A stretch of 32,000 nucleotides of DNA from Thermodesulfobacterium commune DSM 2178 (GCF_000734015.1 NZ_CP008796.1:1440001-1472000); one strand, 5' to 3'; positions 1,578 through 32,000 are shown, numbered from the stretch's first letter. The notes: generated from the letters alone by a model not told the origin. Numbers and translations are program-made.

Positions 1578-1590
1578 AACCTTTTCTCCG

Positions 1591-1929: not shown

Positions 1930-1941
1930 GCCTCCGTAACC

Positions 1942-3357: not shown

Positions 3358-3452
3358 AGTTATCCCTCAACCCTATAAAATTTTAAAAAACTATTATAAC
3401 ATATTTATACTAAAACACTATCGATAAAATCTGTTCGAGGCTTGAATTTTAG

Positions 3453-4358: not shown

Positions 4359-4370
4359 GATTTAACCCCT

Positions 4371-12481: not shown

Positions 12482-12639
12482 TTTAAGTCTCCCCGCTTAA
12501 ATCTGATTATATAACTTTTTAATTTATCATAGTTATAATTTTTATCCAGTGAGGTTAGGTTTTGCTAAATTTTCAGGTTATGAGCTTTCAATCTGTGTAG
12601 ATATAATTTTCGTAATGTTTATAAAAAATAATTGACCTT

Positions 12640-12789: not shown

Positions 12790-12819
12790 ATTTTTTAAAG
12801 TGTTAATTTGTTTGCAAAA

Positions 12820-13557: not shown

Positions 13558-13642
13558 AAATTATCATGTCAGAAATAGGATTAAAAAGCTGTTATAAATT
13601 AAATAGAAAATAAATATTAATGAAAAGGGACTTTAACAAAAA

Positions 13643-15352: not shown

Positions 15353-16091
15353 TGCACCTGAGGAAGAGTATTTAAAGCATATTAAAAGGTGTGAAGAAAA
15401 GTTTGAAATTTTATTTTCGATTTTTTCTCACACAGTAAGAAGGATACTGAATAGCTCTTTTTCAGAAGATGAACTACGCCAATATTTCTTGAAGATGATT
15501 AGGTTCCACGACCTTGGCAAGCTCACCAAAAAATGGCAGGAGAATATAGGTAAAGATAAAAATAAAAAATTACCCTCTCATGCTCCAATAGGTGCTGCCT
15601 ACCTGTGGAAAGTTTTGCCAAAAGGTATAAAAGAATCTTTAGCCTTTGCGGTTGCTATTCATCATACAGACCGGGGTCTTCTTGGAGACAACATTGAAAG
15701 ACCAGATGTTCAGGCAATACTTGATGGCATAGTTAAGAATGACGGGAGTATTGATTGGCACAAAGGAGTAGATGATTTAGATAAAGAATACTTTCCAGAT
15801 GGAGCAAGAGAGCTTACGATTAATGATTTAAGAGAAATGGCAAGAGGATTAAGGGTCTGGGCAAGAGGATGCGATTTATTTGAACAACACCGAAGAAGAC
15901 TCCAAGTTGCATTAGCCCATCACATACTAAAACTTTGCGATATCTCTGCTGCAGTAGAGCGAAAAGAGTATCAAAAAGGAGATGAAAATAAAGAAGTCTA
16001 TTTTGGTGGATGGCTTATGTCTAGTAATATAAAAAGTTATGTGGAGAACGTTTATAATCGTATGCAACAATTAAAAAGGTTAAAAACATAG
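15333..16091 (+). CDS. cas3: Cas3'' HD nuclease (stand-alone)
   Basis: IRFHDLGKLTKKWQ (HD), AVAIHHTDRG and LCDISAAVE. ATG 15333 is preceded by AGGGG and overlaps the cas3' end by 20 nt. The ORF track starts at TTG 15324. Confidence 0.8.
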   Translation: MVVLLFSAPEEEYLKHIKRCEEKFEILFSIFSHTVRRILNSSFSEDELRQYFLKMIRFHDLGKLTKKWQENIGKDKNKKLPSHAPIGAAYLWKVLPKGIKESLAFAVAIHHTDRGLLGDNIERPDVQAILDGIVKNDGSIDWHKGVDDLDKEYFPDGARELTINDLREMARGLRVWARGCDLFEQHRRRLQVALAHHILKLCDISAAVERKEYQKGDENKEVYFGGWLMSSNIKSYVENVYNRMQQLKRLKT

Positions 16092-16113
16092 AAAATGGCA
16101 AATTAAATAACAA

Positions 16114-17487: not shown

Positions 17488-17488
17488 A

Positions 17489-18448
17489 ATGCTTAAGTTT
17501 GTAACTTTGGCAGTAAAAGTACAGCTTAACGTTCATGACCTTAACAATGAAACAGTAGCGGGAAATGTAACCGATATAAGGGTTATGGAATTTCTGGATG
17601 AGAATGGTACGCGAAGGGAGGCTCCAGCGGTTTCTGGAAGAATGCTCAAGCATTGGCATTATGAAGGAATGAGGCATTTGATATTAAATGGGTTATATAC
17701 TTCAGTTCCACTATGTGCTGGATGTAAAGTAGGAGAACCTATAAGACCAGCTGAAATTAAAAATGGCAACTTGAAACAAATTGCAAAACCTGAAGAGGAT
17801 GCAATTTTATCTTGCGTTATTTGCGATGTTCACGGTTATCTTATAGCAAGGGAAGCTGAAGGTGAAAGTGATAGAGGTATATCTGCAAGAAGAACTTCTC
17901 GGGCAATGTTTTCATGGCTTATGCCTGTTTTAGGTCCAGAGACTACCTCAACCCAAGTTATACATACAAGGGTGTCACAAATTAGAGAAAGAGGAGAGGG
18001 CGAGCAAGCAGCTCAAATGATTTTCAACAAATCGTATGCTTCAGGTATTTATGCCTTTGTGTCAGCTCTTGATGTAGATAGAATCGGGCTTGTTGAGTTG
18101 AACCTTGGTAGTTCAAATCCTTATGTTATCAATAATAACGATCGTAAAAATAGAATTAAGGTTGCCTTAGAAGCATATCGTTATCTGATTTCAGGACAAA
18201 TGGGAGCCTCTCTCTCACATGCCATACCTCACATGAACCCGATTGAGGTTTTCGTTGCCTATTCAGAAGTTGGACCTTTGCCTTTCCCTGTGTCACCAAT
18301 GTATAGTGATTATCTTTCCAAAACTGTAGGGCTTTTTCCCCAACATGCTAAGTTTCTTTACTGGGGGCAAAAAACCCCAGAAGGAGTAATTAAAAAAGAA
18401 AAAATTTCCGAAATTTTTGATGAGCTTTTAGGTAAGGTTGAAGAATAA
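17489..18448 (+). CDS. cas7: Cas7 backbone subunit (Csa2/Cst2/DevR family)
   Basis: LNVHDLNNE...AVSGRMLKHW is typical of the Csa2/DevR N-terminus. GGAGGTG precedes the ATG, and the position is between cas8 and cas5. Confidence 0.85.
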   Translation: MLKFVTLAVKVQLNVHDLNNETVAGNVTDIRVMEFLDENGTRREAPAVSGRMLKHWHYEGMRHLILNGLYTSVPLCAGCKVGEPIRPAEIKNGNLKQIAKPEEDAILSCVICDVHGYLIAREAEGESDRGISARRTSRAMFSWLMPVLGPETTSTQVIHTRVSQIRERGEGEQAAQMIFNKSYASGIYAFVSALDVDRIGLVELNLGSSNPYVINNNDRKNRIKVALEAYRYLISGQMGASLSHAIPHMNPIEVFVAYSEVGPLPFPVSPMYSDYLSKTVGLFPQHAKFLYWGQKTPEGVIKKEKISEIFDELLGKVEE

Positions 18449-18459
18449 GAGTTTTTAAC

Positions 18460-19257
18460 ATGAAAGCCATAGCTTTTAAAGTAAGATTAAATTCTCTTTA
18501 TTCCATTAGAATTCCCTTTACCTGGCAATCTGCTTTAACTTATCCTGTGTTACCACCATCGGCTGTGATTGGAATGTTTGCTAATGCTCTTCAACGCTAC
18601 AAGAATGATAGAAATCCTTTAGATTATCTTAATTTAGTGGAAGAAAACATAATTTGGGCTGGCTCAAGGCTCCTTACTCCATGCCTTATCAAGAGTTATA
18701 CAACCTCTGCCATTACTAAATGGGAAGATCATATAGGTGCTAAATTTACTAATGCTCTGGGAAGACAGTTTGCTTTTACAAAGACTTTAGAAATTGCTGG
18801 AATTTTTAAAGATGATACATTAATAAATGAGCTTGTAGAAGCTTTGATAACTTCTCCGCTTACCTGTGGAGATAGTGAGTCAGCTATAAGTTTAGAGAAT
18901 AAGCCTGAAGACATGATAAAGGAAGTTGAAAAAGTAGATGATTTAGAAAGTATCGTCACTAATTACCCCTTTCCCTTTACCAATGATATAGAAATTAGTG
19001 AAGGAAAAGGGCTTCTTTATCTTATGCATGAAAGGTGTAAACCCTCTGAGAAGAATTTTCCTCTCACTCTTTATCTTGTTCCCATAGAAGAAAAAGAAAG
19101 AATCCTATTTCCTACCTCCGTAACTATTCAGATTGTTAAGAAAAATTCAGAAAGTCCAAAAGAAGTGTTTAAAATTCAAGACATAGGATATGTCTTAAAA
19201 AGCCAATTTAAAAATAGAAGAACAAAAGCTAAGATAAAGAAAAGGAAAAAGAATTAA
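18460..19257 (+). CDS. cas5: Cas5 (I-A/I-B type)
   Basis: The N-terminus reads FKVRLNSLYSIRIPFTWQSALTYPVLPPSAVIGMFANAL (Cas5 P-x-P-S...G pattern). It follows cas7. Confidence 0.8.
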   Translation: MKAIAFKVRLNSLYSIRIPFTWQSALTYPVLPPSAVIGMFANALQRYKNDRNPLDYLNLVEENIIWAGSRLLTPCLIKSYTTSAITKWEDHIGAKFTNALGRQFAFTKTLEIAGIFKDDTLINELVEALITSPLTCGDSESAISLENKPEDMIKEVEKVDDLESIVTNYPFPFTNDIEISEGKGLLYLMHERCKPSEKNFPLTLYLVPIEEKERILFPTSVTIQIVKKNSESPKEVFKIQDIGYVLKSQFKNRRTKAKIKKRKKN

Positions 19258-19307
19258 AAATTTTGAGTTGCAGGATGATATTAAGTACAGGTTTTTTTAA
19301 ATTTTAA

Positions 19308-19345
19308 TACGAGAATTTTAAAACTATATTTTCAAAATTCTCGTA
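19308..19345. repeat. Perfect 12-bp inverted repeat TACGAGAATTTT/AAAATTCTCGTA with a 14-nt loop
   Basis: Arms at 19308-19319 and 19334-19345. It lies between the cas5 stop and the ATPase relic ATG. No U-tract follows, so it is not a canonical terminator. Confidence 0.6.
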
Positions 19346-19358
19346 CTAAAATAAAATC

Positions 19359-19874
19359 ATGATTAAAAGAAAATTGTTAGAAGAAATAAAAGGGCATTTG
19401 AATAAAAGGGAGATTACTTTTATCGTAGGTCCGAGGCAAGCGGGTAAGACTACACTAATGTTAATGTTTAAGGAATTTTTAGAATTTTTTTACTTCTCAG
19501 AGCAAGCTGATAAAGAAGATAGAGCTTGAATTGGAGTTTTACAGGATGCTGGATTTATTTTTGAAAACTTTATTTTCAATTTGCTTAAAGAAAAAGCAAG
19601 GCAAAACTTTGCTAAAATTTATTTCTGGAGAACAAAGGATAAAAGTGAGGTAGACTTTGTCGTAGAAAGAGGAAATGAGGTTATTCCTGTAGAAGTGAAG
19701 TACAAAAGGCTTACCAAACCAGAGATCACGAGAGGGATGAGAAGTTTTATAGAAAGATATAAGCCAAAGAAAGCTTTTATTGTAAACCTTGAACTTGAAA
19801 GCACTTTTTGTTTAAACAGTACCAAGCTTTATGTGGTACCTTATTACAAACTACTGACTGATTGTTTCTTATAA
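19359..19874 (+). pseudogene. Relic of a COG1373-type AAA+ ATPase (DUF4143 family): in-frame TGA plus a large internal deletion
   Basis: The N-terminus is MIKRKLLEEIKGHLNKREITFIVGPRQAGKTTL (Walker A), then TGA at 19527. The same frame continues ...GFIFENFIFNLLKE...KSEVDFVVERGNEVIPVEVKYK, which is the family C-terminus. That is 172 codons in total, against the roughly 400 aa I remember for intact members. Confidence 0.75.
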
Positions 19875-19876
19875 AG

Positions 19877-20371
19877 ATGGTATCCGTAACAGGCACACTT
19901 ATCTGGTATTACTACATTTGTCCAAGGGAAGTATGGCTTATGAGCAGACACTTAAATCCGTCTCAGGATGACCCTTTTATTGAAATTGGAAGGCTTATAA
20001 GTAAGGAAGCTTACCAACGAGAAAGAAAAGAGGTAAGGGTTGAAAATATTGTTATAGATCTTCTAAAAAGTTCAGAGGGTGAAGTTGTGGTAGGAGAGGT
20101 GAAAAAATCATCGAAGTATGAAAAAAGTGCCAAGATGCAGATTTGTTATTATCTTATGAGATTAAAAGCACTTGGTATTCTTGCTAAAGGAGTTCTTCTT
20201 TTTCCAAAAGAAAAAAAGAGGATTGAGGTAGATCTTACTCCAGAGATTGAAGAAGAATTAAAAAATACTATTGCTGACATAAAGGCAATTTCTGAAAAAG
20301 AGACGCCGCCCCCAGCAAAAAAAATTAAGTTTTGTGCAAAATGTGGTTATAAGGAGTTTTGCTGGGCATGA
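19877..20371 (+). CDS. cas4: Cas4 (RecB-like nuclease with a C-terminal Cys cluster)
   Basis: VTGTLIWYYYICPREVWL and the C-terminus FCAKCGYKEFCW. ATG 19877 lies just after the relic stop. The ORF track starts at TTG 19862. Confidence 0.85.
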   Translation: MVSVTGTLIWYYYICPREVWLMSRHLNPSQDDPFIEIGRLISKEAYQRERKEVRVENIVIDLLKSSEGEVVVGEVKKSSKYEKSAKMQICYYLMRLKALGILAKGVLLFPKEKKRIEVDLTPEIEEELKNTIADIKAISEKETPPPAKKIKFCAKCGYKEFCWA

Positions 20372-21360
20372 AAAAAACTGTTTATATCTTTACAGACGGA
20401 GAACTTAAACGAAAGGACAACACTATTTGCTTAGAGACTTCTAATGGTAAGAAATATCTTCCTGTTGAAAATGTAGCTGAAATCTTGGTTTTTGGAGAAG
20501 TAACAGTAAACAAGCGTTTTCTCGAATTTCTCACTCAATCAGAAATAATTCTTCATTTTTTTAACCGATATGGTTATTATGTCGGCTCTTTTTATCCACG
20601 CGAACATCTAAACTCTGGTTACATGATTTTAAAACAGGCTGAATTTTATCTTGATAGGGATAAAAGATTTGTTCTTGCAAAAAAGTTTGTTTGGGGAGCT
20701 ATAGAAAACATCAAAAAAGTCCTTACCTACTATCAGAATAGAGGAAAGAATTTAGAGGAAATTATTGATAAGGTTAACTCTATAAGTGATGGACTTGTAA
20801 GATGTAGAAATGTAGATGAGCTCATGGCTATTGAGGGAAATGTAAGAGAGCAGTATTACCATGCTTTCGATAGAATCCTTAATAAGGAACATTTTGTTTT
20901 TGAAGCCCGCAGTAAAAGACCACCAAAAAATAGATTAAATGCTCTTATAAGTTTTGGGAATTCGCTTCTTTATACAGTTTGTCTAAGCGAGATTTATAGA
21001 ACTCATCTTGATCCAAGGATTGGGTTTCTTCATACTACTAACTTTAGGAGGTTTAGTCTTAATCTTGATGTAGCTGAAATTTTTAAGCCAATTATTGTGG
21101 ATAGAGTGATTTTTAATTTGGTTAACAAGTCTATTATTAAATCTCAACATTTTGAGAGTAAACTTGACGGTATTGTGTTAAATGAAAAGGGGAAACAGGT
21201 GTTTATTAAAGAATTTGATGAAAAATTAAAAACAACGCTTTATCATAAAAGATTAAAAAGAAAGATATCTTACAGAAGTTTAATTCGTTTAGAGTTGTAT
21301 AAGATTGAAAAACACTTAATGGGAGACGAAGAATATAAACCTTTTATAAGTGAATGGTAG
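20368..21360 (+). CDS. cas1: Cas1 integrase
   Basis: MKKTVYIFTDGELKRKDNT..., MAIEGNVREQYY, NALISFGNSLLY and DPRIGFLH. AAGGAG lies 11 nt upstream, and there is an ATGA overlap with the cas4 stop. Confidence 0.95.
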   Translation: MKKTVYIFTDGELKRKDNTICLETSNGKKYLPVENVAEILVFGEVTVNKRFLEFLTQSEIILHFFNRYGYYVGSFYPREHLNSGYMILKQAEFYLDRDKRFVLAKKFVWGAIENIKKVLTYYQNRGKNLEEIIDKVNSISDGLVRCRNVDELMAIEGNVREQYYHAFDRILNKEHFVFEARSKRPPKNRLNALISFGNSLLYTVCLSEIYRTHLDPRIGFLHTTNFRRFSLNLDVAEIFKPIIVDRVIFNLVNKSIIKSQHFESKLDGIVLNEKGKQVFIKEFDEKLKTTLYHKRLKRKISYRSLIRLELYKIEKHLMGDEEYKPFISEW

Positions 21361-21363
21361 GCA

Positions 21364-21627
21364 ATGTATGTGATTTTAGTGTATGATATTAATGAAAAAA
21401 GAGTGCAAAAAGTGTTAAAGATTTGTAGAAAATTTTTGCATTGGGTACAAAATTCAGTTTTTGAAGGAGAGATTACAGAAGCAAAACTTTTCAAGCTAAA
21501 ACAGCAGCTTAACCATGTTATAGATCCTGAAGAAGATTCGGTGGTTATATATACGTTTTTAACTGAGAAGTATTCAAGAAGGGAGATTTTAGGAAAGAAC
21601 AAAGCGGTTACGGATGTGATTATATAA
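21364..21627 (+). CDS. cas2: Cas2
   Basis: 87 aa, MYVILVYDI...RVQKVLKICRKFLHWVQNSVFEGE. It starts 3 nt after cas1. Confidence 0.95.
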   Translation: MYVILVYDINEKRVQKVLKICRKFLHWVQNSVFEGEITEAKLFKLKQQLNHVIDPEEDSVVIYTFLTEKYSRREILGKNKAVTDVII

Positions 21628-21788: not shown

Positions 21789-23221
21789 GTTTTGAGCCTA
21801 CCTACAAGGAATTGAAACCTCCTGTTTTTCCTGAGTATTCAGCTCTTATTGACCCGGTTTTGAGCCTACCTACAAGGAATTGAAACTCAAGAGACTTGTA
21901 ATAATTGTCCATCTGGATATGTTTAGTTTTGAGCCTACCTACAAGGAATTGAAACGTGCTTGGTATGATGTTTTAGAGGTTTATGTAGATGGTTTTGAGC
22001 CTACCTACAAGGAATTGAAACTAAGCAATTTTCTCAACATCTTTTATCCCCACCTCCGTGTTTTGAGCCTACCTACAAGGAATTGAAACTTTCCAGCCTT
22101 TTCCCATCTATTTCGTCCTCAAAAAGTTTTGAGCCTACCTACAAGGAATTGAAACCAAACTACTACCTTCTCCCCCAAATAATTAAAATAAGTTTTGAGC
22201 CTACCTACAAGGAATTGAAACGAAGAAGAGGTAGCTCAAAAATTAGGTATTAAAAAATGTTTTGAGCCTACCTACAAGGAATTGAAACGTTCAATACGAC
22301 ACATAGAAGGCTTGTGGGAACTATACGTTTTGAGCCTACCTACAAGGAATTGAAACAGGAAAAAGAAGGATAATTCTTCGGTGGAAAAATAACGTTTTGA
22401 GCCTACCTACAAGGAATTGAAACTGAATTTGTAATGAAAAGATGAAGCGAGATGTTTTTGTTTTGAGCCTACCTACAAGGAATTGAAACTGAGAACTGGA
22501 AATTATCAGTATTCAGTGCCTGAGATGTTTTGAGCCTACCTACAAGGAATTGAAACATCTATCTGTTTAGGTATCTGAAATTCAATCATTCCGGTTTTGA
22601 GCCTACCTACAAGGAATTGAAACTTTACCATGAAGGACCCCACTGATCATTCGGGAAATCGTTTTGAGCCTACCTATAAGGAATTGAAACACCGCTCCCT
22701 TTCCTATCCGAGCCAACTCAAAAGAGAGTTTTGAGCCTACCTATAAGGAATTGAAACCTTTAAACTTCCCAATCCAAGGCACAGGAGCCGAATGTTTTGA
22801 GCCTACCTATAAGGAATTGAAACACTGTTTAAATTTCTTGCTTGCCTCTTGACTATATTGGTTTTGAGCCTACCTATAAGGAATTGAAACCCCTCAGGTA
22901 ATCTTGTCCTGAGAACAAAGTGTATGGGTTTTGAGCCTACCTATAAGGAATTGAAACGTTTCACCGTTCAATTCTTGCATATATCTAATTAGGTTTTGAG
23001 CCTACCTATAAGGAATTGAAACGAAGATAGCCCAGACCCAGAGCATCCACAGTGCATAAGTTTTGAGCCTACCTATAAGGAATTGAAACATGAGTCTCTT
23101 GACATTTTCTAAAAATATGTTAAAAGTTTTGAGCCTACCTATAAGGAATTGAAACATATTAATATACACAACACGTTGCCCTGCTTTATCAGTTTTGAGC
23201 CTACCTATAAGGAATTGAAAC
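21789..23221 (+). CRISPR. CRISPR array: 22 repeats of 30 nt (GTTTTGAGCCTACCTAYAAGGAATTGAAAC) and 21 unique spacers of 35-39 nt
   Basis: I located every repeat by hand. Repeat starts are 21789, 21857, 21926, 21992, 22060, 22126, 22192, 22259, 22327, 22394, 22460, 22527, 22594, 22661, 22728, 22794, 22861, 22928, 22993, 23060, 23126 and 23192. The ATTGAAAC 3' end, which gives the 8-nt crRNA 5' handle, fixes the orientation as +. Repeats 1-13 have C at repeat position 17 and repeats 14-22 have T. Confidence 0.98.
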
Positions 23222-23243
23222 ATTACTCCTTATTTGCCCTTAC

Positions 23244-26200
23244 ATGCTTACAGAAGGCTCGATAATTGAAGGAGACTTTTGGCCTGAGCCTGTTGAAGTC
23301 AAAAGAGTAGAAGAGGTAGAGGATGGATACCGCATCGTTGGTTCAACGATAATTTCCCGTCAGCATGTAGATGATTTCATCGCCTTTTCAGACCTTCCAA
23401 AGATAAAAACTAAAGAATTCTTGTTAAGTTTTACTCAACCGGGCTCTGAAGCCTTTTTAGCCCTTGAGGCTCTTCGGTTTAGGTATGCTTCCCTTTTTGA
23501 CCCCTTGCTTGCTGTAAACGTCTCCAAAGTCGAGCCCCTACCCTTTCAGATTGAAGCTGTCTATGGCTATATCCTAAAGCTTCCTCATATAAGGTTTCTT
23601 CTTGCTGACGACCCCGGGGCAGGAAAGACTATCATGGCTGGTCTTGTGATAAAAGAGTTAAAGCTTAGAGGGCTTGCTAGGCGAATCCTCATCGTTGTCC
23701 CAGGTCATCTAAAAGATCAATGGTTAAGAGAATTGCAAGAAAGGTTTAAAGAAACCTTTGTAGTCTTTGATAGATACACTTTAAACGCCTCCTACGGAGA
23801 TAACTTTTTACTTCGGAATAATCAAGTCATAACCTCTATGGACTTTGCTAAACAAGAAGAGATCTTACCCCTTTTTGCTTCCTCTCATTGGGACCTAACC
23901 ATCGTTGACGAAGCCCATAAAATGGCAGCCTACAGATACGGTGAAAAAGTTGAAAAAACGCAAAGGTATAAATTAGGGGAAACCCTTTCAAAAACCTCTA
24001 CCCATCTGCTCTTTCTTACAGCAACCCCTCACAAAGGGGACCCAGAGAATTTTCGCCTACTTCTTGACCTACTTAAACCTGGATTTTTTGCAACTTCTGA
24101 GATGGTTGAAGCCTCCTTAAGAGACCAAGATAACCCTCTTTTTATAAGACGGCTTAAAGAAGACCTAAGAGATTTTGAAGGCAAGCCGTTATTTACCAAT
24201 CGCTATCCTAAAACCATTAAGTTCACGCTTTCTGACGAAGAAAGAGAGCTTTACCAAGAGCTTTCTCAGTATGTCGTTGAGCAATACAACAAAGCTTTGA
24301 CCCTTGATAAAAAGAGAAACATTGGTTTTGCCCTTCTAATACTTCAGAGAAGAATGGCCTCAAGCACTTATGCCCTCCTTAAATCCCTTGAGAGAAGAAA
24401 AAACCGTCTTGAAGACCTGCTTAAAAGCCCTGAGCTTGATAAAAAACTTACTAATTTAGAAGACTTTGAAGAAGTAGAAGATTATCAGGAAAAAGAAAGA
24501 TGGAAAATAGAAGAAAAATGGGAAACAATTAGCTTAGCAAGAAACAAAGAAGAGCTAAGAAGAGAGATTTGGACAATTGAGAGACTAATAGAAAAAGCTA
24601 AAGAAATATTAGCAGAAGAAAAGGAAGTAAAACTATCTGAATTAAAGAAGGCTATTGAAGAGGGGTTTAGAAAGCTAAAAGAAGTTGGCGGAAACGAGAA
24701 AATTTTGATTTTTACAGAATCTAAGGACACTTTAGAATATCTTGTAAACAAAATTAAATCGTGGGGATACTCTATCAACTATATTCATGGTGGAATGGAT
24801 TTAAGAGAAAGAGTGGAAGCAGAAAGAGTGTTCAGAGATAAAACACAAATTATGGTAGCAACAGAGGCAGCTGGTGAAGGTATAAACCTTCAATTCTGCA
24901 ATCTTATGATAAATTACGACATTCCTTGGAACCCAAACCGCCTTGAACAAAGAATAGGAAGGATACACCGGTATGGACAACAGAAAGATGTATTTATCTT
25001 CAATCTTGTAGCGATTGACACGATAGAGGGAAGAATTTTATCCAAACTCTTCGACAAGCTTGAAGAAATTAAAGAAAAACTTGGTAGCGATAGAGTATTT
25101 GACATAATAGGTGAGGTCTTCTTAGGGAAAAATCTGTATCAATTGATCGTAGAGGCTGTAGTGCAGGCAAAAACTTTGGATGAAATCATAAAAGAAATAG
25201 ACATAGAAGTTGATGAAGAATATATTAGGAAAGTTAAGTCAGCCTTGGGAGAAAGTTTAGCTACAAAGTTTATAGATTATACAAGGATAAAGGAACTTTT
25301 TGAAAAGGCAAAAGAAAATAGGCTTATTCCTGAGTATGTAGAAGAATTTTTCAAGAAAGCGTTCACAAAAGCAGGAGGAAGCTATCATATCAGAAAAGAT
25401 GGTTTTATCAGCTTAGAGGCTCTTCCTTTTGAGCTAAAAAACATAGCTCAGAAACAAAACATAACTCTTGCCAAATATCCTAAGGCAACCTTTGATAAGG
25501 ATAAAGCCTTTAAAAATCCTGATGCAGAATTTATCTCCTTTGGGCATCCGCTTCTTGAAACGCTTATAGATTGGGTACATCAAACCTTTCTAAACAATCT
25601 TCAAAAGGGAGCTATGTTTGAAGACCCAGACGGAAAATATAACGGTATCATTTGGTTCTTTGAAGGGGAAGTAAAAGATGGAAAAGGAGAAACAGCAGGA
25701 AAGAGGATCTTTGCCATCTACGATGATATGGAAAAAAACTTTACCGAAATAAACCCAGCGGTTATCTGGGACCTAATTCCAATAGATAATCCAACTGAAG
25801 TGCCAAACTTAGAAAATCTTAATTCGAGAAAAGAGAATACTAAAAACTTTGCTCGACAACTAATAATGAAGTATAAAAAAGAAATTGAAGAAGAAAGGAC
25901 AAGGCAAGCTGAAATAAAAGAAAAATACGGTATCAAATCTTTAGAATATCTCATCGATAAGCTAGATGAAGAACTTGTTGTGCTGTATGAAAGAGAGGAT
26001 AAAGGAAAAGAGGTAAGGTTAGCTATCCAAAACAAAGAAGAAAGAAAAAAATATTATCAAAAGGCTTTAGATGAGCTTAAAGAAGAAATAAAAAGGGAAA
26101 AAACTTTGACCATAACTTGGCCTCAGTTCAAAGGGGCAATCTTAGTTAAACCTAAAAAAACAGACCAAATGGTTAGCGATGAGGAAATAGAAAGAATAGG

Positions 26201-26549
26201 TATGGAAATTGCGATGGAATACGAAAGAAGTCAAGGAAGGGAGCCTGAAGATGTGTCAAAAGAAAACCTTGGGTTTGACATTAGGTCAAGAGGAAAAGAT
26301 GAGATAAGATACATTGAGGTAAAGGCAAGAAAAGATGAGGGAGATGTAGCATTAACCGTCAACGAATGGCTTAAGGCAAAACGCTTTAAAGAAAACTACT
26401 GGCTCTACATAGTTTGCAACGCCATCACCAATCCAACTCTATACATCATTAACAACCCTGCGGAGAATTTGAAAGTTCAAGATAAGGTAGAAGTAGTAAG
26501 GTTTATTGTTCCGTTAGAAGAATGGAAGAAAAAAGGAGAGAGGGCATAA
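23244..26549 (+). CDS. SNF2/SF2 helicase with a C-terminal DUF3883-like PD-(D/E)xK domain
   Basis: LLADDPGAGKTIMAG (motif I), LTIVDEAHKMA (DEAH), LFLTATPHKG (III), IMVATEAAGEGINLQ (V) and LEQRIGRIHRYGQ (VI). There are coiled-coil inserts. The C-terminus IERIGMEIAMEYERSQG...GFDIRS...IRYIEVKAR...EWLKAKRFKENYWLYIV matches the remembered DUF3883 pattern. Confidence 0.85.
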   Translation: MLTEGSIIEGDFWPEPVEVKRVEEVEDGYRIVGSTIISRQHVDDFIAFSDLPKIKTKEFLLSFTQPGSEAFLALEALRFRYASLFDPLLAVNVSKVEPLPFQIEAVYGYILKLPHIRFLLADDPGAGKTIMAGLVIKELKLRGLARRILIVVPGHLKDQWLRELQERFKETFVVFDRYTLNASYGDNFLLRNNQVITSMDFAKQEEILPLFASSHWDLTIVDEAHKMAAYRYGEKVEKTQRYKLGETLSKTSTHLLFLTATPHKGDPENFRLLLDLLKPGFFATSEMVEASLRDQDNPLFIRRLKEDLRDFEGKPLFTNRYPKTIKFTLSDEERELYQELSQYVVEQYNKALTLDKKRNIGFALLILQRRMASSTYALLKSLERRKNRLEDLLKSPELDKKLTNLEDFEEVEDYQEKERWKIEEKWETISLARNKEELRREIWTIERLIEKAKEILAEEKEVKLSELKKAIEEGFRKLKEVGGNEKILIFTESKDTLEYLVNKIKSWGYSINYIHGGMDLRERVEAERVFRDKTQIMVATEAAGEGINLQFCNLMINYDIPWNPNRLEQRIGRIHRYGQQKDVFIFNLVAIDTIEGRILSKLFDKLEEIKEKLGSDRVFDIIGEVFLGKNLYQLIVEAVVQAKTLDEIIKEIDIEVDEEYIRKVKSALGESLATKFIDYTRIKELFEKAKENRLIPEYVEEFFKKAFTKAGGSYHIRKDGFISLEALPFELKNIAQKQNITLAKYPKATFDKDKAFKNPDAEFISFGHPLLETLIDWVHQTFLNNLQKGAMFEDPDGKYNGIIWFFEGEVKDGKGETAGKRIFAIYDDMEKNFTEINPAVIWDLIPIDNPTEVPNLENLNSRKENTKNFARQLIMKYKKEIEEERTRQAEIKEKYGIKSLEYLIDKLDEELVVLYEREDKGKEVRLAIQNKEERKKYYQKALDELKEEIKREKTLTITWPQFKGAILVKPKKTDQMVSDEEIERIGMEIAMEYERSQGREPEDVSKENLGFDIRSRGKDEIRYIEVKARKDEGDVALTVNEWLKAKRFKENYWLYIVCNAITNPTLYIINNPAENLKVQDKVEVVRFIVPLEEWKKKGERA

Positions 26550-26551
26550 GG

Positions 26552-28075
26552 ATGAAAGAGCAAAAGAGCTTTATTGAAGTTACCTTCCCTATAAAAGAGG
26601 TTAGCGAAGAGTCAGCAAGGGAGAAGAACATAAGGCATGGGCATATTTCAACCTTACATATCTGGTGGGCAAGGCGTCCTCTTGCCTCATCAAGGGCAAC
26701 AACTTATGCTGCCCTAATTCCTTACCCATCAACGGAAAAGGAAGCTAAGGAAAAGGCTAAATTCATCGTTGAGCTTTCTAAATGGGAAAATTCTCTAAAA
26801 GAGGACCTTATCCAAAAGGCAAGGGAAGACATTCTTAAGACAAACGGTGGGAAGCCTCTACGCGTGTTAGACCCCTTTTCTGGCGGTGGCTCAATTCCCT
26901 TAGAGTGCTTAAGGCTTGGGTTAGAGACCCATGCGGTGGAGTATAATCCCGTTGCGGTCCTTATTCTAAAATGCACCCTTGAGTATCCTCAAAGGTATGG
27001 AAGACAAAACAAGGTTAAAAAAGATGAAGGCTTGTTCAATTTTGAAAAAGAAGAAAGTCCGCTTATTGCGGATGTCAGGAAATGGGGGGAGTGGGTTTTA
27101 GAGAAAGCAAGAGAGGAGATAGGAAAGTTTTATCCTGCAGATGAGGACGGCTCAGTCCCAGCAGGTTATATCTGGGCAAGGACAATACCTTGTCAAAACC
27201 CCTCTTGCGGAGCAGAAACTCCGCTTATGCGCCAGTTTTGGCTTGCAAGAAAGGAAAATAAGATGATTTCGCTCTATCCTTTTGTTCATGAAGGAAGGGT
27301 TGAGTTTGCTATAGTGAAGAAAAACGGAGATGAATGGCAGGTAGTAGAGAGCTCTATCCCTGGATTTAGCCCGAAGGTTCCCTTTAACTTTGAGCCAGAA
27401 AAGGGGACGGTTTCTCGAGCCATCGCCGTTTGCCCTGTCTGCGGGGGCATGGTTGATGACAAGCAAGTAAGAAGGCTTTTTCAAGAAGGGAAGGCTGGGC
27501 AAAGGATGGTAGCCGTTGTCTTAAGTAGACCTCAAGGCAAAGCCTACAGGTTAGCAACTAAAAGAGATGTCGAATTTTATAGAAAAGCGGAAGAATATTT
27601 GGAGGAAAAGAGGGAAAAGCTCTGGGAAGAGTGGGGAATTGACCCTGTGCCGGATGAAGAAATTGATCCAAATTCATTAAAGCCGAGAACAATGTGGCTA
27701 TATGGGATGAGTAGATGGGGCGACCTTTTCAACTCCCGCCAAAAGTTAGCGCTGATTACCTTTACTGAAAAGGTCCGTCTTGTGTATAATAAAATGATAG
27801 AAGAGGGATACGATAAAGATTACGCTAAGGCGGTTGTGAGTTATTTGGGCTTGGGAGTAAACAGGTTGGCAATTTATGCTACCACTTTTGGATATTGGCA
27901 TAACACCAGGGAATTAGTAAATCCAGGTATGGGTAGACAAGCTCTAGCTATGACATGGGATTATTCGGAAGTCAATCCTTTTGGTGGTAATGCTGACTGG
28001 GAATCTGCTATAAGTTGGATTATTTACGTCCTCTCCCACCTCACCCAAATCCCACCGGTGGAGACTGAGGAATGA
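26552..28075 (+). CDS. DUF1156-type DNA methyltransferase, N-terminal half (DUF1156 + SAM motif I + Zn ribbon)
   Basis: FPIKEVSEESAREKNIRHGHISTLHIWWARRPLASSRA (DUF1156 signature), VLDPFSGGGSIPLEC (FxGxG motif I), and CQNPSCGAE...CPVCGG (Zn ribbon, COG1743-like). This ORF has no DPPY motif. ATG 26552 lies 2 nt after the helicase stop. The ORF track starts at 26522. Confidence 0.8.
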   Translation: MKEQKSFIEVTFPIKEVSEESAREKNIRHGHISTLHIWWARRPLASSRATTYAALIPYPSTEKEAKEKAKFIVELSKWENSLKEDLIQKAREDILKTNGGKPLRVLDPFSGGGSIPLECLRLGLETHAVEYNPVAVLILKCTLEYPQRYGRQNKVKKDEGLFNFEKEESPLIADVRKWGEWVLEKAREEIGKFYPADEDGSVPAGYIWARTIPCQNPSCGAETPLMRQFWLARKENKMISLYPFVHEGRVEFAIVKKNGDEWQVVESSIPGFSPKVPFNFEPEKGTVSRAIAVCPVCGGMVDDKQVRRLFQEGKAGQRMVAVVLSRPQGKAYRLATKRDVEFYRKAEEYLEEKREKLWEEWGIDPVPDEEIDPNSLKPRTMWLYGMSRWGDLFNSRQKLALITFTEKVRLVYNKMIEEGYDKDYAKAVVSYLGLGVNRLAIYATTFGYWHNTRELVNPGMGRQALAMTWDYSEVNPFGGNADWESAISWIIYVLSHLTQIPPVETEE

Positions 28076-28563
28076 TGGATAAAGAGACCGCAAAAAAGGT
28101 TTTAGAGATAATGCTTACCGCTGATGGGGGATGCGAATATTGCGTTAGAAACCTTTATCTGCAGTTCATAAAGGAATTCCCGCAGTATTCTTACCTTGCC
28201 AGAAAGCTTTATAGGAAAACCTTTAATCAAGAGCTTGTAACCGAAGATATGGCAGAAGATATAATAAAAGAGGTCATCAATGAGACATTAAAAGCATACA
28301 ACTTGGAAGGGGAAAAGATAATTCTTTTTGGGTCAAGAGCAAGGGGCACCCAAAGAAAAGACAGCGATTGGGATATTCTTGTTGTTGTAAAACAACCTGT
28401 TGCTAAAGAAACCAAACAGAAATTATTTAAAGAAATTACCGAAAGGCTTTCCTATTACTTAATTCCTTGTGATGTGATAATAAAATCAGTTAAGGATCTT
28501 GAGTTTTACAAGAACTTTTATGGAACTGTCACTTATGAAGCCTTAAAAGAAGGGCACTCTTGA
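28072..28563 (+). CDS. Nucleotidyltransferase-domain protein (MNT-like) with an unassigned ~70-aa N-terminal extension
   Basis: ILFGSRARGTQRKDSDWDILVV carries the GS...DxD minimal NTase motif. I do not recognise the N-terminal MMDKETAKKVLEIMLTADGGCEYCVRNLY.... Its ATG overlaps the upstream TGA (ATGA). Confidence 0.65.
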   Translation: MMDKETAKKVLEIMLTADGGCEYCVRNLYLQFIKEFPQYSYLARKLYRKTFNQELVTEDMAEDIIKEVINETLKAYNLEGEKIILFGSRARGTQRKDSDWDILVVVKQPVAKETKQKLFKEITERLSYYLIPCDVIIKSVKDLEFYKNFYGTVTYEALKEGHS

Positions 28564-28574
28564 GGTTATAAAAA

Positions 28575-28871
28575 ATGAAAACAATTGAAGAAATAAAGAG
28601 AATACTTGCGGAGCATAAATCAGAAATAAGAGAAAAATATGGAGTAGTAATAGTTGGCATCTTTGGGTCCTATGCAAGAGGAGAACAAAAGGAAACAAGC
28701 GATATAGATATTATCGTAGAACTTGATAGACCAGTTGGATTAGATTTTTATGAATTTTGGGACTACATTGAAAATCTTTTTGGAACAAAAGTAGATGTTT
28801 TAACACTAAGCGCACTTAAACAGAAACCTTTGCTTTGGGAAAAAGTAAAGGACAATATTGTCTATGTCTAA
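28575..28871 (+). CDS. mntA: Minimal nucleotidyltransferase antitoxin (MntA-like)
   Basis: 98 aa with GIFGSYARGEQKETSDIDIIVELD. It lies directly upstream of a HEPN/DUF86 gene and overlaps it. Confidence 0.85.
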   Translation: MKTIEEIKRILAEHKSEIREKYGVVIVGIFGSYARGEQKETSDIDIIVELDRPVGLDFYEFWDYIENLFGTKVDVLTLSALKQKPLLWEKVKDNIVYV

Positions 28872-29217
28872 ACCTAATAGGGATTGGAAACTATTAATCT
28901 TAGACATTTTAGAAAGTATCAATAAGATTGAAAGGTATACTGAAGGAATGGATTACGAGCTTTTTGAAAAGGCAGAACAAACTAAGGATGCTGTAGTAAG
29001 AAATCTTGAAATAATAGGAGAAGCCTCAAGCAAAATCCCTAAAGATATACAACAAAAATACAACCATATCCCTTGGGGTAAGATAATAGCAATGCGAAAC
29101 AGAATGATCCATGGCTACTTTACTATAGATTATCGTATTGTTTGGAAAATTATAAAAGAAGACTTACCTGAGCTTAAGGAACAGTTAGAACAAACTCTAA
29201 AAAAGGAGAAAGGATGA
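28864..29217 (+). CDS. hepT: HEPN-domain (DUF86) toxin (HepT-like RNase)
   Basis: RNLEIIGEA and RNRMIHGY (the Rx4-6H HEPN motif). There is an 8-nt ATGTCTAA overlap with mntA. The ORF track starts at TTG 28858. Confidence 0.85.
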   Translation: MSKPNRDWKLLILDILESINKIERYTEGMDYELFEKAEQTKDAVVRNLEIIGEASSKIPKDIQQKYNHIPWGKIIAMRNRMIHGYFTIDYRIVWKIIKEDLPELKEQLEQTLKKEKG

Positions 29218-30452
29218 AGAAAATCATAATCCCCACAGTCCTTCAAGCCTCAGCAACAGAACTACCTTATCCAGATAACTACTTTGACGCCGTCTTCACC
29301 GACCCGCCCTATTATGATAATATCAATTATGCAGAACTTTCTGACTTCTTTTATGTTTGGCTAAAAAGGAGTATAGGAGATCTATACCCAGAATTATTTT
29401 CTACCCCATTGGTTCCTAAGAGTAAAGAAATTGTAGCAAATCCGGTAAGACATGGAGGAGAAGCAAAAGCAAAAGAATTTTTTGAAACTATGCTCAAAAG
29501 AGCCTTCCAGGAAATTTACCGGGTTTTAAAGCCAAACGGTATAGCGGTAATTGTTTACACCCACAAGTCAACTTCTGGTTGGGAAACAATGATAAACTCC
29601 CTTTTAGACTCAGGGTTAGTGCCTACGGCAAGCTGGCCTATTGATACTGAGATGAAAACCAGATTAATAGCTAAAGATTCTGCCGCCCTTGCTTCATCCA
29701 TCTACATAGTTTGTAGGAAGATGGAAAGGGAAGATATTGGATGGTTTAGCGATGTGAAAAAGGAGATAAGAGAAAGGATTTTTAACAACCTCCTTTGGGA
29801 AGAAGGTATTGCTGGACCAGATTTTTTTATTGCCTGCATAGGGTCAGCCATAGAAGTTTTTGGCAGGTATAAAAAAGTTATGGATTACGAAGGAAATGTG
29901 ATAAGGGCAGATAAGCTTCTTGAGTTTGTGCGAGAGGTGGTAACCGAGTATGCAATAAAGCAGATTTTACACAATGGCATTGCTGGAGAGCTTTCAGCTT
30001 TGACTAAGTTTTACATCCTTTGGAGATGGTCTTTTAGGGAAGCTAAGGTTGAGTTTGACGAGGCAAGAAAGCTTGCCCAAAGCATAGGCGTTCATTTAGA
30101 AAGAGTATGGAATAGAAGCTTCATCAAAAGGGATAGAAACTACATAAAGGTTCTTGGTCCACAAGACAGAAGATTAGAAGACATTGAAAACATGAGAGAA
30201 AAAGATTTGATAGATGTTTTGCATCAAGTTTTGCTCCACTGGTCTAAAGGAAGACGAGATGAGATGAAGAGGGTACTTAAAGAGACTGGATATGGTGAGA
30301 ATGATGCCTTTTACCGAGTTGCTCAAGCTGTATCCGAAACTTTACCAAACGACAGCAAAGAAAAGAAGCTTCTTGATGGCTTTTTATCAGGGAAAGATAG
30401 GCTTATATTGGAAATAAAAGATATAAAGGACAAACAAGGGAGGTTGTTATAA
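29214..30452 (+). CDS. DUF1156-type DNA methyltransferase, C-terminal half (catalytic motif IV DPPY)
   Basis: LPYPDNYFDAVFTDPPYYDNINYAELSDFFYVWLKR, the DPPY N6A/N4C catalytic motif in its family-typical context. No motif I in this ORF. Its ATG overlaps the hepT TGA (ATGA). Confidence 0.8.
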   Translation: MKKIIIPTVLQASATELPYPDNYFDAVFTDPPYYDNINYAELSDFFYVWLKRSIGDLYPELFSTPLVPKSKEIVANPVRHGGEAKAKEFFETMLKRAFQEIYRVLKPNGIAVIVYTHKSTSGWETMINSLLDSGLVPTASWPIDTEMKTRLIAKDSAALASSIYIVCRKMEREDIGWFSDVKKEIRERIFNNLLWEEGIAGPDFFIACIGSAIEVFGRYKKVMDYEGNVIRADKLLEFVREVVTEYAIKQILHNGIAGELSALTKFYILWRWSFREAKVEFDEARKLAQSIGVHLERVWNRSFIKRDRNYIKVLGPQDRRLEDIENMREKDLIDVLHQVLLHWSKGRRDEMKRVLKETGYGENDAFYRVAQAVSETLPNDSKEKKLLDGFLSGKDRLILEIKDIKDKQGRLL

Positions 30453-32000
30453 ATGAGACCTTTTACTACAGTTGCTGTACCTCATGATGATATCTTAAAA
30501 GAGAAACTTACGATGGATGTATTTGCCGCTGACCTATGGCAAGTCTATAAAGGATCTGCTCCAGCCGAATATCAAGACCCAAGAGAGTTTTTTAGGAAGA
30601 CCTTTTTGACAAAAGGAATGTCTTACTTAATTGATGTGGTAAGGAAAAGGCTTGAAGGAAGGGGTGGGGACTCGGTTATACAGCTTCAGACACCTTTCGG
30701 CGGTGGAAAAACCCATTCTTTGATAGCTTTATACCACAAAGCAAAGACAGAATTCAACGCTAAGGTAGTTGTTCTCAGCGGAACTGCATTTGACCCAAGA
30801 GACACTTTCTTGTGGGAAGAAATAGAAAGACAACTGACAGGTAAAGTTGATATTTTAAAGGGTAATATATCACCTGGTAAAGAGAAGTTAAGAAAAGTAT
30901 TAGAAAATCATCAACCTTTATTAATCCTTATGGATGAAATTCTTGCATATACTATCAAAGCTGATGGAGTTAAGGTTGGGAATACTACTTTAGGAGATCA
31001 AACCCTGTGTTTTATACAAGAGCTTACTGAGACTTTGTCAACATTATCTAATGCTGTATTAGTTTTTACTTTACCTTCTAGTCTGCTTGAACATTTTGAT
31101 GAAAAAGGAGAAAAAAGATTTCAACAACTTCAAAAATTTGTTGGAAGGATGGAAAAGGTTCTTACACCGATTGAAGACGAAGAGGTTGCCCATGTAATAA
31201 GAAAAAGACTTTTTAAGTATGTTGATGAGAGCTTAGCTGAAGAAATAATCCAGGAGTTTACTGATTATGCAGAAAGAGAAGGCTTTTTAAAAATGGACAA
31301 AGTTTTATACAAGCAAAGATTTAAGGCCAGCTATCCTTTTCAACCAGAGGTTATTGATGTTTTATACAAAAGATGGGGCTCTTTCCCAACCTTTCAGAGA
31401 ACAAGAGGAGTTTTAAGGCTCCTTGCCCTTGTTGTTAAGTCTTTAAAAGATTCAAACTTACCTTTTATCAGCCTTGGGGACATTGATCTATCCAACGAAG
31501 AAATTAGAAGAGAGCTTATTAAACATATTGGGTCTGAATATGATAGCGTAATAGCAGCTGACATTACTTCTTCAAACTCTGGAGCTAAAAAAGTAGACGC
31601 CTCTCTTGGATTATCCTATTTATCCTTTAGATTGGGCACAAAAATTGCAACAACCATTTTCATGTATTCTTTTTCAGGTGGACCAGAAAAGGGCGCAACT
31701 CTTAGTGAAATTAAGCTTTCCTGTGCAAGACCAGAATTTCAAAGTAGCATAATTGTTGAAGCTTTAGAAAAGTTAAGAAATACTCTTTTCTACCTTTCTG
31801 ACTCCGAAAGCATATATCTTTTCACAAATAAGCCGAACCTTAATCGCATTCTTCTTATCAAGATGGACGGGATAAGTGAAGCAAGATTAATTGAAGAGGA
31901 AGAACATTTGTTAAAGCAGGTATTTAAAAAATCTGAACACTTTGATATATATATTTGCCCAAAACATACAAGGGACATACCAGACTCAGAAAAACTTAAG
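30453..32000 (+). CDS. DUF499-type (COG1483-like) ATPase; the C-terminus runs off the window
   Basis: I translated it by hand from ATG 30453, with GGGAGG about 10 nt upstream: MRPFTTVAVPHDDILKEKLTMDVFAADLWQVYKGSAPAEYQDPREFFRKTFLTKGM...IQLQTPFGGGKTHSLIALYH (P-loop) ...LLILMDEILAY (Walker B-like). It stays open to base 32000 and is absent from the ORF track because it has no in-window stop. Confidence 0.8.
   Translation, partial: MRPFTTVAVPHDDILKEKLTMDVFAADLWQVYKGSAPAEYQDPREFFRKTFLTKGMSYLIDVVRKRLEGRGGDSVIQLQTPFGGGKTHSLIALYHKAKTEFNAKVVVLSGTAFDPRDTFLWEEIERQLTGKVDILKGNISPGKEKLRKVLENHQPLLILMDEILAYTIKADGVKVGNTTLGDQTLCFIQELTETLSTLSNAVLVFTLPSSLLEHFDEKGEKRFQQLQKFVGRMEKVLTPIEDEEVAHVIRKRLFKYVDESLAEEIIQEFTDYAEREGFLKMDKVLYKQRFKASYPFQPEVIDVLYKRWGSFPTFQRTRGVLRLLALVVKSLKDSNLPFISLGDIDLSNEEIRRELIKHIGSEYDSVIAADITSSNSGAKKVDASLGLSYLSFRLGTKIATTIFMYSFSGGPEKGATLSEIKLSCARPEFQSSIIVEALEKLRNTLFYLSDSESIYLFTNKPNLNRILLIKMDGISEARLIEEEEHLLKQVFKKSEHFDIYICPKHTRDIPDSEKLK

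Follow-up and report, generated by a model that had tools for sequence, protein, structure and literature searches.

Can an operon with restriction-modification (RM)-like action remain intact when its DNA methylase gene is divided in two and toxin-antitoxin (TA) genes lie in the gap? This question is raised by a 32,000-nt stretch of the Thermodesulfobacterium commune DSM 2178 genome (NZ_CP008796.1:1440001-1472000; "the window" below means this stretch at its full length, and coordinates refer to it), in which seven open reading frames (ORFs), all on one strand, ran from 23244 to the window end in our ORF listing. A sequence-only reading of this DNA had described a co-directional operon starting at 23244 and running off the window end, which is borne out. 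It had counted three large genes; instead, the methylase is encoded by two ORFs, and the TA genes embedded between them had been missed (Table 1). The computationally proposed helicase-methylase-ATPase system it had mentioned is Hma, the PADLOC models of which are the best matches for all four pieces of the operon. The operon itself is an ordinary member of this named, surveyed and partly characterised system, and the split methylase with the embedded TA genes are the only unusual features here. With a probability of about 0.65, we read the locus as an intact Hma operon, of the Type-1 BREX-related (BR) kind, with RM-like action, a two-chain methylase, and a cassette that would persist as an addiction module inside the antidote gene.

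The two methylase ORFs, termed here the N-half and C-half of hmaB, match successive stretches of the 973-position PADLOC HmaB profile (N-half, positions 4-550, 1.2e-77; C-half, positions 571-876, 1.5e-55) and therefore are colinear halves of one methylase gene. Pfam assigned DUF1156 (1.4e-23) to the N-half and N6_N4_Mtase (3.2e-06) to the C-half. The N-half contains the DUF1156 helical domain, the S-adenosylmethionine (AdoMet) motif I DPFSGGG117, strands β1-β2, a β-rich insert containing a Zn ribbon (four-Cys pair CQNPSC224 / CPVC304), which is a putative target-recognition domain, and two hypervariable segments. The C-half contains β3, β4 with DPPY30, the remaining Rossmann fold, and C-terminal helical/helix-turn-helix-like domains. 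Motif I and DPPY are both present, on two separate ORFs. The TGA of the N-half overlaps the ATG of the first embedded gene, NT163 (ATGA), and the hepT TGA likewise overlaps the C-half ATG, the Shine-Dalgarno sequence of the C-half (AAGGAG) lying inside the hepT 3' end; mntA and hepT overlap by 8 nt, and the hmaC start codon lies directly on the base after the C-half stop. Such overlaps, found at either hmaB junction and again between mntA and hepT, suggest translational coupling. ATGA overlaps with Shine-Dalgarno sequences placed in the coding end of the gene ahead make the gap behave like an operon junction. Promoter and terminator scans of 22900-32000 were at the shuffled expectation (20 promoters predicted vs 18.9 shuffled, 7 terminators vs 9.0), giving no support for internal transcription units.

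Table 1. Coordinates of the hma operon, of the neighbouring CRISPR-Cas features and of the repeats flanking a related operon (window numbering unless a locus handle is given).
Feature	Position	Strand	Description
hmaA	23244..26549	+	1101 aa; SNF2/SF2 translocase with C-terminal NOV_C PD-(D/E)xK nuclease; predicted restriction effector
hmaB N-half	26522..28075	+	517 aa (507 aa from alternative start 26552); C-terminus ...LTQIPPVETEE*
Nucleotidyltransferase NT163 (orphan, class II-type)	28072..28563	+	163 aa; GSX10DXD at residue 87
mntA-like minimal nucleotidyltransferase MNT98	28575..28871	+	98 aa; GSX10DXD at residue 31
hepT	28864..29217	+	117 aa from ATG 28864 (119 aa from TTG 28858); predicted HEPN RNase toxin
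hmaB C-half	29214..30452	+	412 aa; N-terminus MKKIIIPTVLQASAT (strand β3), then FDAVFTDPPYY (β4 + catalytic motif IV)
hmaC	30453..32000	+	first 516 codons; DUF499 ORC/Cdc6-like AAA+ ATPase; cut by window end
CRISPR array	21789..23221	+	22 repeats of 30 nt, GTTTTGAGCCTACCTA[C/T]AAGGAATTGAAAC; Rfam CRISPR-DR2, 22 matches
Type I cas locus	12808-21627		cas6-cas3'-cas3''-cas8-like-cas7-cas5-cas4-cas1-cas2
TA1 direct repeats	L093:1759-2452 and 11940-12633

A frameshift or a chimeric contig can mimic a split gene. Many of the related loci are contigs of metagenome-assembled genomes (MAGs), and errors probably account for a few of the apparent splits (L009, and L028, which contains runs of N). For the window this explanation is effectively refuted: the gap between the halves spans 1.14 kb and holds three complete, conserved genes, and the same layout is found in independent samples, including the complete genomes CP007141.1 and CP043908.1. 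The seven-gene layout was repeated in contigs shown from JGI, NCBI and Logan, where 23 contigs with an identical C-half were read. On those contigs the operon ends with hmaC (856 aa when complete, on public contigs L087-L089 of the same locus) and is followed by an ORF of 130-146 aa and then coaBC. One copy, in a sample otherwise identical to the window, carries a 584-aa DUF7380/EMARD_N protein directly after hmaC (L089:13828-15582), which is absent in the other copies.

The split is widely conserved. The window's C-half is 100% identical to a protein listed as 'MULTISPECIES: DUF1156 [Thermodesulfobacterium]', and 105 of its 120 best homologues (67-100% identity) are of split size (400-440 aa). 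The same holds for 101 of the 120 best N-half homologues (470-540 aa), 14 being full length. Sources of the homologues include Thermodesulfobacteriota, Thermotogota, Nitrospirota, Kapaibacteria, Caldisericota, Dictyoglomota, Aquificota and several archaeal lineages. For the gene neighbourhoods, 80 loci from species-representative genomes were fetched and annotated by phmmer and hidden Markov model (HMM) searches. The split layout was seen in Thermotogota, Campylobacteraceae, Aquificaceae and Kapaibacteria; for one archaeon, of the Bathyarchaeota, the evidence is partial. Every split C-half starts at the same residue, MK(K/T/S).(I/L)P.V.Q.SATELPYPDNYFDAVFTDPPYYD, and at this point fused relatives carry a linker that is short, variable and in many cases acidic. 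An ORF of 430 aa (P0100) was excluded as split evidence, its start possibly being a gene-calling artefact, and L009, L028, L071 and L083 were handled as ambiguous or damaged. The hmaB split with embedded cargo is a new architectural variant of a known system that recurs in many heat-loving bacteria and archaea.

We computed the ratio of nonsynonymous to synonymous substitution rates (dN/dS) against two close relatives, L091 and L092 (C-half identity 96% and 89%). Both hmaB halves are under purifying selection, with dN/dS at 0.09 in the C-half and 0.20-0.30 in the N-half; the ratios of hmaA and hmaC were 0.11-0.16 and 0.09-0.13. Had the TA insertion inactivated hmaB, the locus would be degenerating or methylase-independent, with only HmaA of consequence. 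We regard such decay as highly improbable in view of these ratios and of the intact motifs, and the length of the ORF is constant (405-419 aa) at 62-100% identity across bacterial and archaeal phyla. In addition, the translational coupling signals are kept, and in one homologue (P0312) the halves have apparently re-fused in frame to a full-length ORF. Real damage does occur in relatives (an in-frame stop in L009, fragmented hmaA and N-half in L017, split hmaA in L090). Decay would also be in line with the finding that Halomonas HmaA alone protects E. coli from T4, for which the NOV_C nickase residues D1084, E1104, K1106 and E1121 are needed, and with the absence of hmaB or hmaC from 15-20% of hmaA loci (PMC11232893).

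The two halves did not diverge at the same pace. In the close-relative comparison the N-half was far more divergent than the C-half (85% vs 96% identity; dN 0.112 vs 0.017), and the divergence was concentrated in two segments, residues ~381-396 and ~445-505 (28-40% identity, compared with 90-100% in the rest), which assort independently among close alleles (window, P0271, P0275, L091, L092, P0312). The second segment abuts the split site. The pattern looks like recombinational shuffling of specificity-determining loops, and it raises the alternative that HmaB is split for modular specificity, a recognition-bearing N-half being exchangeable against a conserved C-half as with HsdS/HsdM in Type I systems, and the cassette being a by-product. 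We find this doubtful. Fused relatives vary at the same positions, in the linker as well as the segments, so that diversification does not depend on the split; AdoMet motif I lies in the N-half, which therefore is no pure specificity subunit; and DNA contact by the two segments is itself putative.

The position of the break was examined on a structure model of P0312, the fused homologue (902 aa, 79% identical to the window's N-half). A first AlphaFold2 model from a 14-sequence alignment was discarded (mean predicted local distance difference test score, pLDDT, 58; methylase core unresolved); the model from an 80-sequence alignment reached a pLDDT of 92.6 and a predicted TM-score of 0.91. In this model β1 (112-115) is followed by motif I, and β2 (133-138) by the β-rich Zn-ribbon insert and helices, the last of which spans 473-488. 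The break corresponds to the loop 489-498 (IPPVETEKPV) between this helix and β3 (499-502); β4 (515-520) and then DPPY (to 524) follow. In the model the break thus falls in a surface loop, variable and acidic, that follows the β-rich insert with its helices and precedes Rossmann strand β3. The canonical strand order of class I methyltransferases is 3-2-1-4-5-7-6. With this order, β2-β1 of the N-half would sit between β3 and β4 of the C-half, and the two chains would therefore have to co-fold. A Foldseek search of the PDB with this model recovered generic class I methyltransferases (SpnF, Bud23, Trm11/14; best E-value 4.6e-4) and no PglX- or MmeI-like match, giving no assignment beyond the Rossmann fold.

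We turn to the genes in the gap. MNT98 matches Pfam NTP_transf_2 (9.4e-16), PADLOC PDC-S09 (5.7e-26) and the minimal nucleotidyltransferase (NTase) of PDB 1WOT (3.2e-07), and its GSX10DXD motif reads GSYARGEQKETSDID. HepT, called as 117 aa in the public annotation, matches Pfam HepT-like PF01934 (8.9e-33) and carries RX4HXY as RNRMIHGY at residue 80; phmmer found no match for it among PDB sequences. A class I MntA/HepT (type VII) pair is therefore intact, with the PF01909 MNT carrying GSX10DXD directly upstream of the PF01934 HepT carrying RX4HXY. In the characterised pair MntA AMPylates the tyrosine of RX4HXY in HepT (PMC7641770, Yao et al. 2020), and MNT98 is by analogy a predicted antitoxin that would AMPylate HepT. 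NT163 matches Pfam NTP_transf_2 (1.6e-12) and PADLOC PDC-S09 (2.3e-14), with only marginal NTase matches by phmmer among PDB sequences. It belongs to an incomplete class II pair (PF05168/PF01909), the HEPN partner of which is missing in the window. In L091, which is 96% identical in the C-half, the cassette has four genes, NT163, the PF05168 HEPN143, MNT98 and HepT117 (L091:6437-8004). By this comparison the window has lost HEPN143 cleanly, leaving 11 nt between NT163 and MNT98. In L092, NT163 is reduced to a 52-aa remnant, and the three cassettes together form a pattern of stepwise toxin loss in which antitoxins are retained.

Gap contents varied widely in the 32 non-redundant loci that are split at the canonical site. 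Eleven loci carry a class I MNT/HepT pair, or HepT beside the C-half (window, L001, L017, L023, L057, L091, L092, L006, L029, L048, L078), five an NTase only (L007, L008, L024, L055, L093), and two a class II NTase/PF05168-HEPN pair (L012, L014). Other cargo was found in eight: in L046 an insert of 4.8 kb that includes a DarT-Macro fusion and fragments of AAA genes, in L022, L027 and L043 PIN and ribbon-helix-helix genes on the opposite strand, and in L020, L056, L054 and L062 unknown proteins. The gap is empty or holds a remnant only in four loci (L004, 83 bp; L025; L033; L051, a bare ATGA overlap) and is cut by contig ends in two (L011, L039). NTase and/or HEPN genes are thus present in 18/30 determinable split loci. 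Immediately after the N-half stop of L004 and L033 the first MNT codons (MKTLEEIR...) remain, so that these loci are cassette-loss derivatives. The L046 insert (L046:3597-8343, from an Aquificaceae MAG) encodes a 390-aa DarT-Macro protein (DarT 6.3e-32, Macro 4.6e-13), AAA_15/AAA_21 ATPase fragments and four ORFs of 139-173 aa without a Pfam match; the gaps of L054 and L062 contain unannotated ORFs of 159-173 aa.

The main rival to our reading is that the methylase works in its split form and the cassette is a neutral passenger, a selfish element that occupies a tolerated junction in an operon that is mobile and well expressed, adding nothing to defence or to operon stability. That gap contents are many and unrelated, or none, agrees with this. 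So does the ease with which toxins are lost, leaving orphan antitoxins (the window without HEPN143; L007, L008, L093 and others with an NTase only). The same NTase/HEPN pairs also occupy other junctions of the operon in this clade, between hmaB and hmaC in 8 loci and between hmaA and hmaB in 5, which points the same way. A neutral passenger accounts less well for the recurrence of NTase and HEPN genes in 18/30 gaps, and for the divergence of MNT (64% identity, window vs L001) and HepT (46%), which is roughly that of the Hma proteins (54-69%) and suggests long co-inheritance. The cassette genes also appear constrained, dN/dS being 0.19-0.38 for MNT and 0.28 for HepT, and NT163 of the window and L091 is 100% identical in amino acids at a dS of 0.11 (dN/dS 0). 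Finally, HEPN recurs as a built-in domain of Type-1 BR ATPases (PMC12839542). Taken together, we consider a purely passive cassette somewhat unlikely.

How the split arises and is lost was approached with a neighbour-joining tree built on 396 columns of the C-half region from 101 taxa (200 bootstraps), which requires 13-19 changes between the split and fused states. Mixed clades include one of 100% support (window, L007, P0016 and P0023 split, P0312 fused), one of 92% (L004 and P0103 split, P0376 fused) and one of 84% (L048 split, L058 fused). At the break P0312 reads IPPVETE-KPVVLQASAT, compared with IPPVETEE* ... MKKIIIPTVLQASAT in the window, and it is six or seven codons shorter, as expected of an in-frame deletion. 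Some lineages apparently re-fused their hmaB halves. Recombination could also have produced the mixed split/fused pattern. We favour one or a few origins of the split, which would have been followed by horizontal spread, cargo turnover and repeated re-fusion, because all splits share one boundary and because of the MNT remnants.

We take a motif common to the junctions, GGAGG...ATGAA(A/G)A, to reflect convergence on signals for translation and not the footprint of a transposon. Around the cassette of the window, neither target-site duplications nor terminal inverted repeats exceeded chance (junction similarity p=0.35), and the junctions compared showed no consistent target-site duplication. 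Junction repeats stood out only in L008 (15 nt, reached in 0/300 shuffles) and L001 (p=0.003). In L008 the MNT-only insert lies between perfect 15-nt direct repeats GTTGAAGAATGAAAA that cover both ATGA junctions (L008:9666-10020), and recombination between the two copies would yield a cargo-free split of the L051 type. A more ambitious proposal is that the β3-side loop is a dedicated intragenic docking site for exchangeable cassettes, with MNT:HepT guarding the modification arm through coupled translation and the Shine-Dalgarno-ATGA-AAA junctions mediating swap, loss and re-fusion. Disturbed hmaB expression or assembly (by phage anti-restriction, host shut-off or imprecise deletion) would then shift the MNT:HepT balance and release an RNase back-up. 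We offer this as a long shot.

The rest of the operon is intact as far as the window reaches. HmaA matched Pfam SNF2-rel_dom (3.9e-18), Helicase_C (2.7e-27) and NOV_C (PF13020, 5.3e-24), the last of which we take to be the former DUF3883. It matched the PADLOC HmaA model at 6.9e-211 (profile positions 66-1131 of 1176) and, all more weakly, the DrmD (3.2e-156), BrxHI/HII (4.9e-119) and DrmA models. Its motifs GAGKT125, DEAH222, QRIGR569, GFD1012...E1025-V-K1027 and E1041 are intact, and D1012, E1025-x-K1027 and E1041 are the counterparts of the four Halomonas nickase residues. In HmaC, which matched Pfam DUF499 (2.8e-32) and PADLOC HmaC (1.3e-109), the Walker A (GGGKTH83) and Walker B (LILMDE157) motifs are intact. 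The motifs quoted in the sequence-only reading (GFDI...YIEVK, the Zn ribbon, GGGKTH, MDE) are all present, and the HMM searches assigned every family it had proposed (SNF2_N-type, Helicase_C, DUF3883-like, DUF1156, DUF499). The order and strand of hmaA-hmaB-hmaC were kept in all fetched loci that span the operon, from >15 bacterial and archaeal phyla, which answers the synteny check it had proposed. In the locus of P0312, hmaA is in two pieces, the helicase (872 aa) and the NOV_C nuclease (143 aa) being encoded by separate ORFs (L090:2688-5989).

The reading we favour can be put as follows. By analogy with published relatives (described below), HmaC, the DUF499 ATPase, would load the methylase on DNA; the methylase would N6-methylate adenine in a short motif, marking self DNA; and HmaA, an SNF2 translocase with a PD-(D/E)xK nickase, would attack unmarked DNA. 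From the anatomy of the halves we infer that the two HmaB chains would reassemble into one Rossmann fold. The break loop would in effect be an extra operon junction, occupied here by the MntA/HepT pair and the orphan NTase. The cassette probably originated as a selfish addiction module and may have been kept inside the antidote (methylase) gene, where its imprecise deletion would cost self-protection. It may also add an abortive-infection HEPN RNase back-up, the role of the ATPase-fused HEPN in other Type-1 systems.

Several points weigh against this reading. Methylation, restriction, assembly of the halves and HepT toxicity in this organism are predictions from sequence. Not only does Halomonas HmaA defend alone, over-expression of HmaB left T4 sensitivity unchanged (PMC11232893). 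RM-like logic is therefore unproven even for the type system. The cargo of the gap is variable and sometimes absent, and therefore no specific cassette is needed for Hma function. HEPN/MNT pairs are very abundant in thermophiles, so that their frequency in the gap may simply reflect background. The antitoxins of type VII systems work as enzymes, and we know of no trigger for HepT release. Lastly, the phylogeny is a neighbour-joining tree of a single 396-column region, in which recombination could inflate the count of transitions.

The location of the operon next to a CRISPR-Cas locus had been taken to fit a defence island. The adjacency is present here, with a type I locus and its 22-repeat array upstream; it is not conserved. 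Operons 89-96% identical in the C-half protein lie beside rpsI-asd (L091) or groESL (L092), CRISPR-Cas being the neighbour in the window and L089, and the adjacency is therefore incidental. The last CRISPR repeat ends 22 nt ahead of the hmaA start codon, and the nine repeats closest to hmaA carry a C-to-T variant (CCTATAAGG). Rfam CRISPR-DR2 matches are on the minus strand; the ...ATTGAAAC 3' end of the repeat argues for plus-strand transcription of the array. Because no convincing separate promoter fits the gap, transcription of hmaA may come from read-through of the array or start at a promoter within the last spacer or repeat. With split cas3' and cas3'', Csa4-like and Csa2/DevR, the interference genes have a type I-A/I-B style. 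A 97-aa ORF between cas5 and cas4 (19581-19874), whose match to DUF4143 is limited to the final ~35 positions, resembles a relic of an AAA_14/DUF4143 ATPase gene within the cas operon; the corresponding place in L089 is occupied by an AAA_14 fragment of 56 aa. Farther upstream, on the minus strand (909-6137), are genes for formate-tetrahydrofolate ligase, FolD, a ferredoxin-domain protein, an FlpD-like protein and an MTHFR C-terminal-domain protein. These are housekeeping folate/C1 genes, and core metabolism therefore bounds the defence region on the left. In Thermodesulfobacterium sp. TA1 (L093, CP043908.1) the hma operon lies between two 694-bp direct repeats, 99.3% identical, with Transposase_mut fragments, an arrangement that resembles a composite transposon.

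If our reading is correct, 'guilt by embedding' would extend from the junctions between genes to a junction inside a gene, and the cargo of split loci, including the unknown proteins of L020, L046, L054 and L062, has not been mined before, the filter of the earlier survey probably having excluded such loci. The hmaB halves would provide a natural two-chain N6-methylase, with re-fused controls such as P0312, for studying the assembly of BREX-related methylases and their loading by DUF499 ATPases. The gap would be a landing pad for TA and defence cargo inside a Rossmann fold at one fixed residue. The locus would also allow a concrete test of whether TA modules inside an RM-like antidote gene are addiction modules or abortive-infection back-ups.

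Among known systems, Hma is the closest. It was named in the PADLOC paper (Payne et al. 2021) from 1,638 instances in 26 phyla (PMC8565338) and was renamed the Type-1 DUF499-centred BR system by Rakesh & Krishnan 2026, who counted 2446 taxa (PMC12839542). The window shares its three families, gene order and strand. Genes embedded between hma genes occur in 62.7% of Hma systems and were used by Payne et al. for the discovery of new defences (bioRxiv 10.1101/2024.01.29.577857), whereas the embedded genes of the window lie inside hmaB, which is two ORFs. The window does not satisfy the rule of that survey that each hma gene be present once, and this one-copy rule would probably have excluded split loci. 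The word 'split' is absent from the main texts of that study (bioRxiv 10.1101/2024.01.29.577857) and of PMC12839542, and searches of the open-access literature (split gene with TA, HEPN or RM; DUF1156) gave no description of a split-methylase arrangement, which is weak evidence. A further difference concerns the ATPase, which carries an N-terminal HEPN RNase in 1370/2446 Type-1 taxa (~56%) (PMC12839542), whereas the fusion is absent from all HmaC proteins of this clade, the window included. The operon had been described as having no known mechanism. This has been superseded by the HmaA nickase (PMC11232893), by the RM-like mechanism proposed for Type-1 BR systems, in which stand-alone HEPN and MNT genes of BREX/BR loci are back-up effectors (PMC12839542), and by MANTIS, a Type-2 BR system. 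In reconstituted MANTIS, the methylase is loaded by the DUF499 ATPase, hemimethylation falls on asymmetric 6-bp sites, and restriction is carried out by the helicase-nuclease (bioRxiv 10.64898/2026.09.23.753747). MANTIS/Gao_RL shares with the window a DUF499 ORC-like ATPase, an N6-adenine methylase and a helicase-nuclease effector and is the best mechanistic template. In contrast to the window, MANTIS has a DUF3870 MtsB, a PLD/HKD nuclease on its helicase and a methylase that is a single polypeptide; Pfam found neither DUF3870 nor PLD/HKD in any ORF of the operon, and we rejected membership.

The embedded pair resembles class I HepT/MntA systems of type VII in that the PF01909 MNT overlaps and immediately precedes the PF01934 HepT. 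Unlike these, the pair of the window lies inside a split methylase gene with its ends coupled to the methylase halves, and it is accompanied by an orphan class II-type NTase without a PF05168 HEPN. With BREX (types 1-6) and DISARM the operon shares a methylation-based self/non-self logic and a BrxC-family (DUF499) ATPase. The sequence-only reading had placed its components in families different from those of BREX; DUF499 is the BrxC family, and the methylase resembles those of Type-3 BREX (PMC12839542). Membership in BREX was rejected, there being no PglZ among the PADLOC matches and no PglZ or BrxA/B/L between hmaA and hmaC or just downstream. DISARM was rejected as well, with no DrmB (DUF1998), DrmC or PLD gene and with DrmD/DrmA matches weaker than that of HmaA. 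The closest precedents for the split itself are M.AquI and M.EcoHK31I, C5-cytosine methylases of Type II systems. Each is made of two polypeptides, encoded by adjacent or overlapping halves, with the break in the variable region beside the target-recognition part, and we know of no cargo genes between the halves. Like them, the HmaB of the window is predicted to be a DNA methylase formed by two polypeptides that must associate. Unlike them, it is an N6A-type DUF1156 enzyme split between β2 and β3, with up to 4.8 kb of cargo in the hmaB gap.

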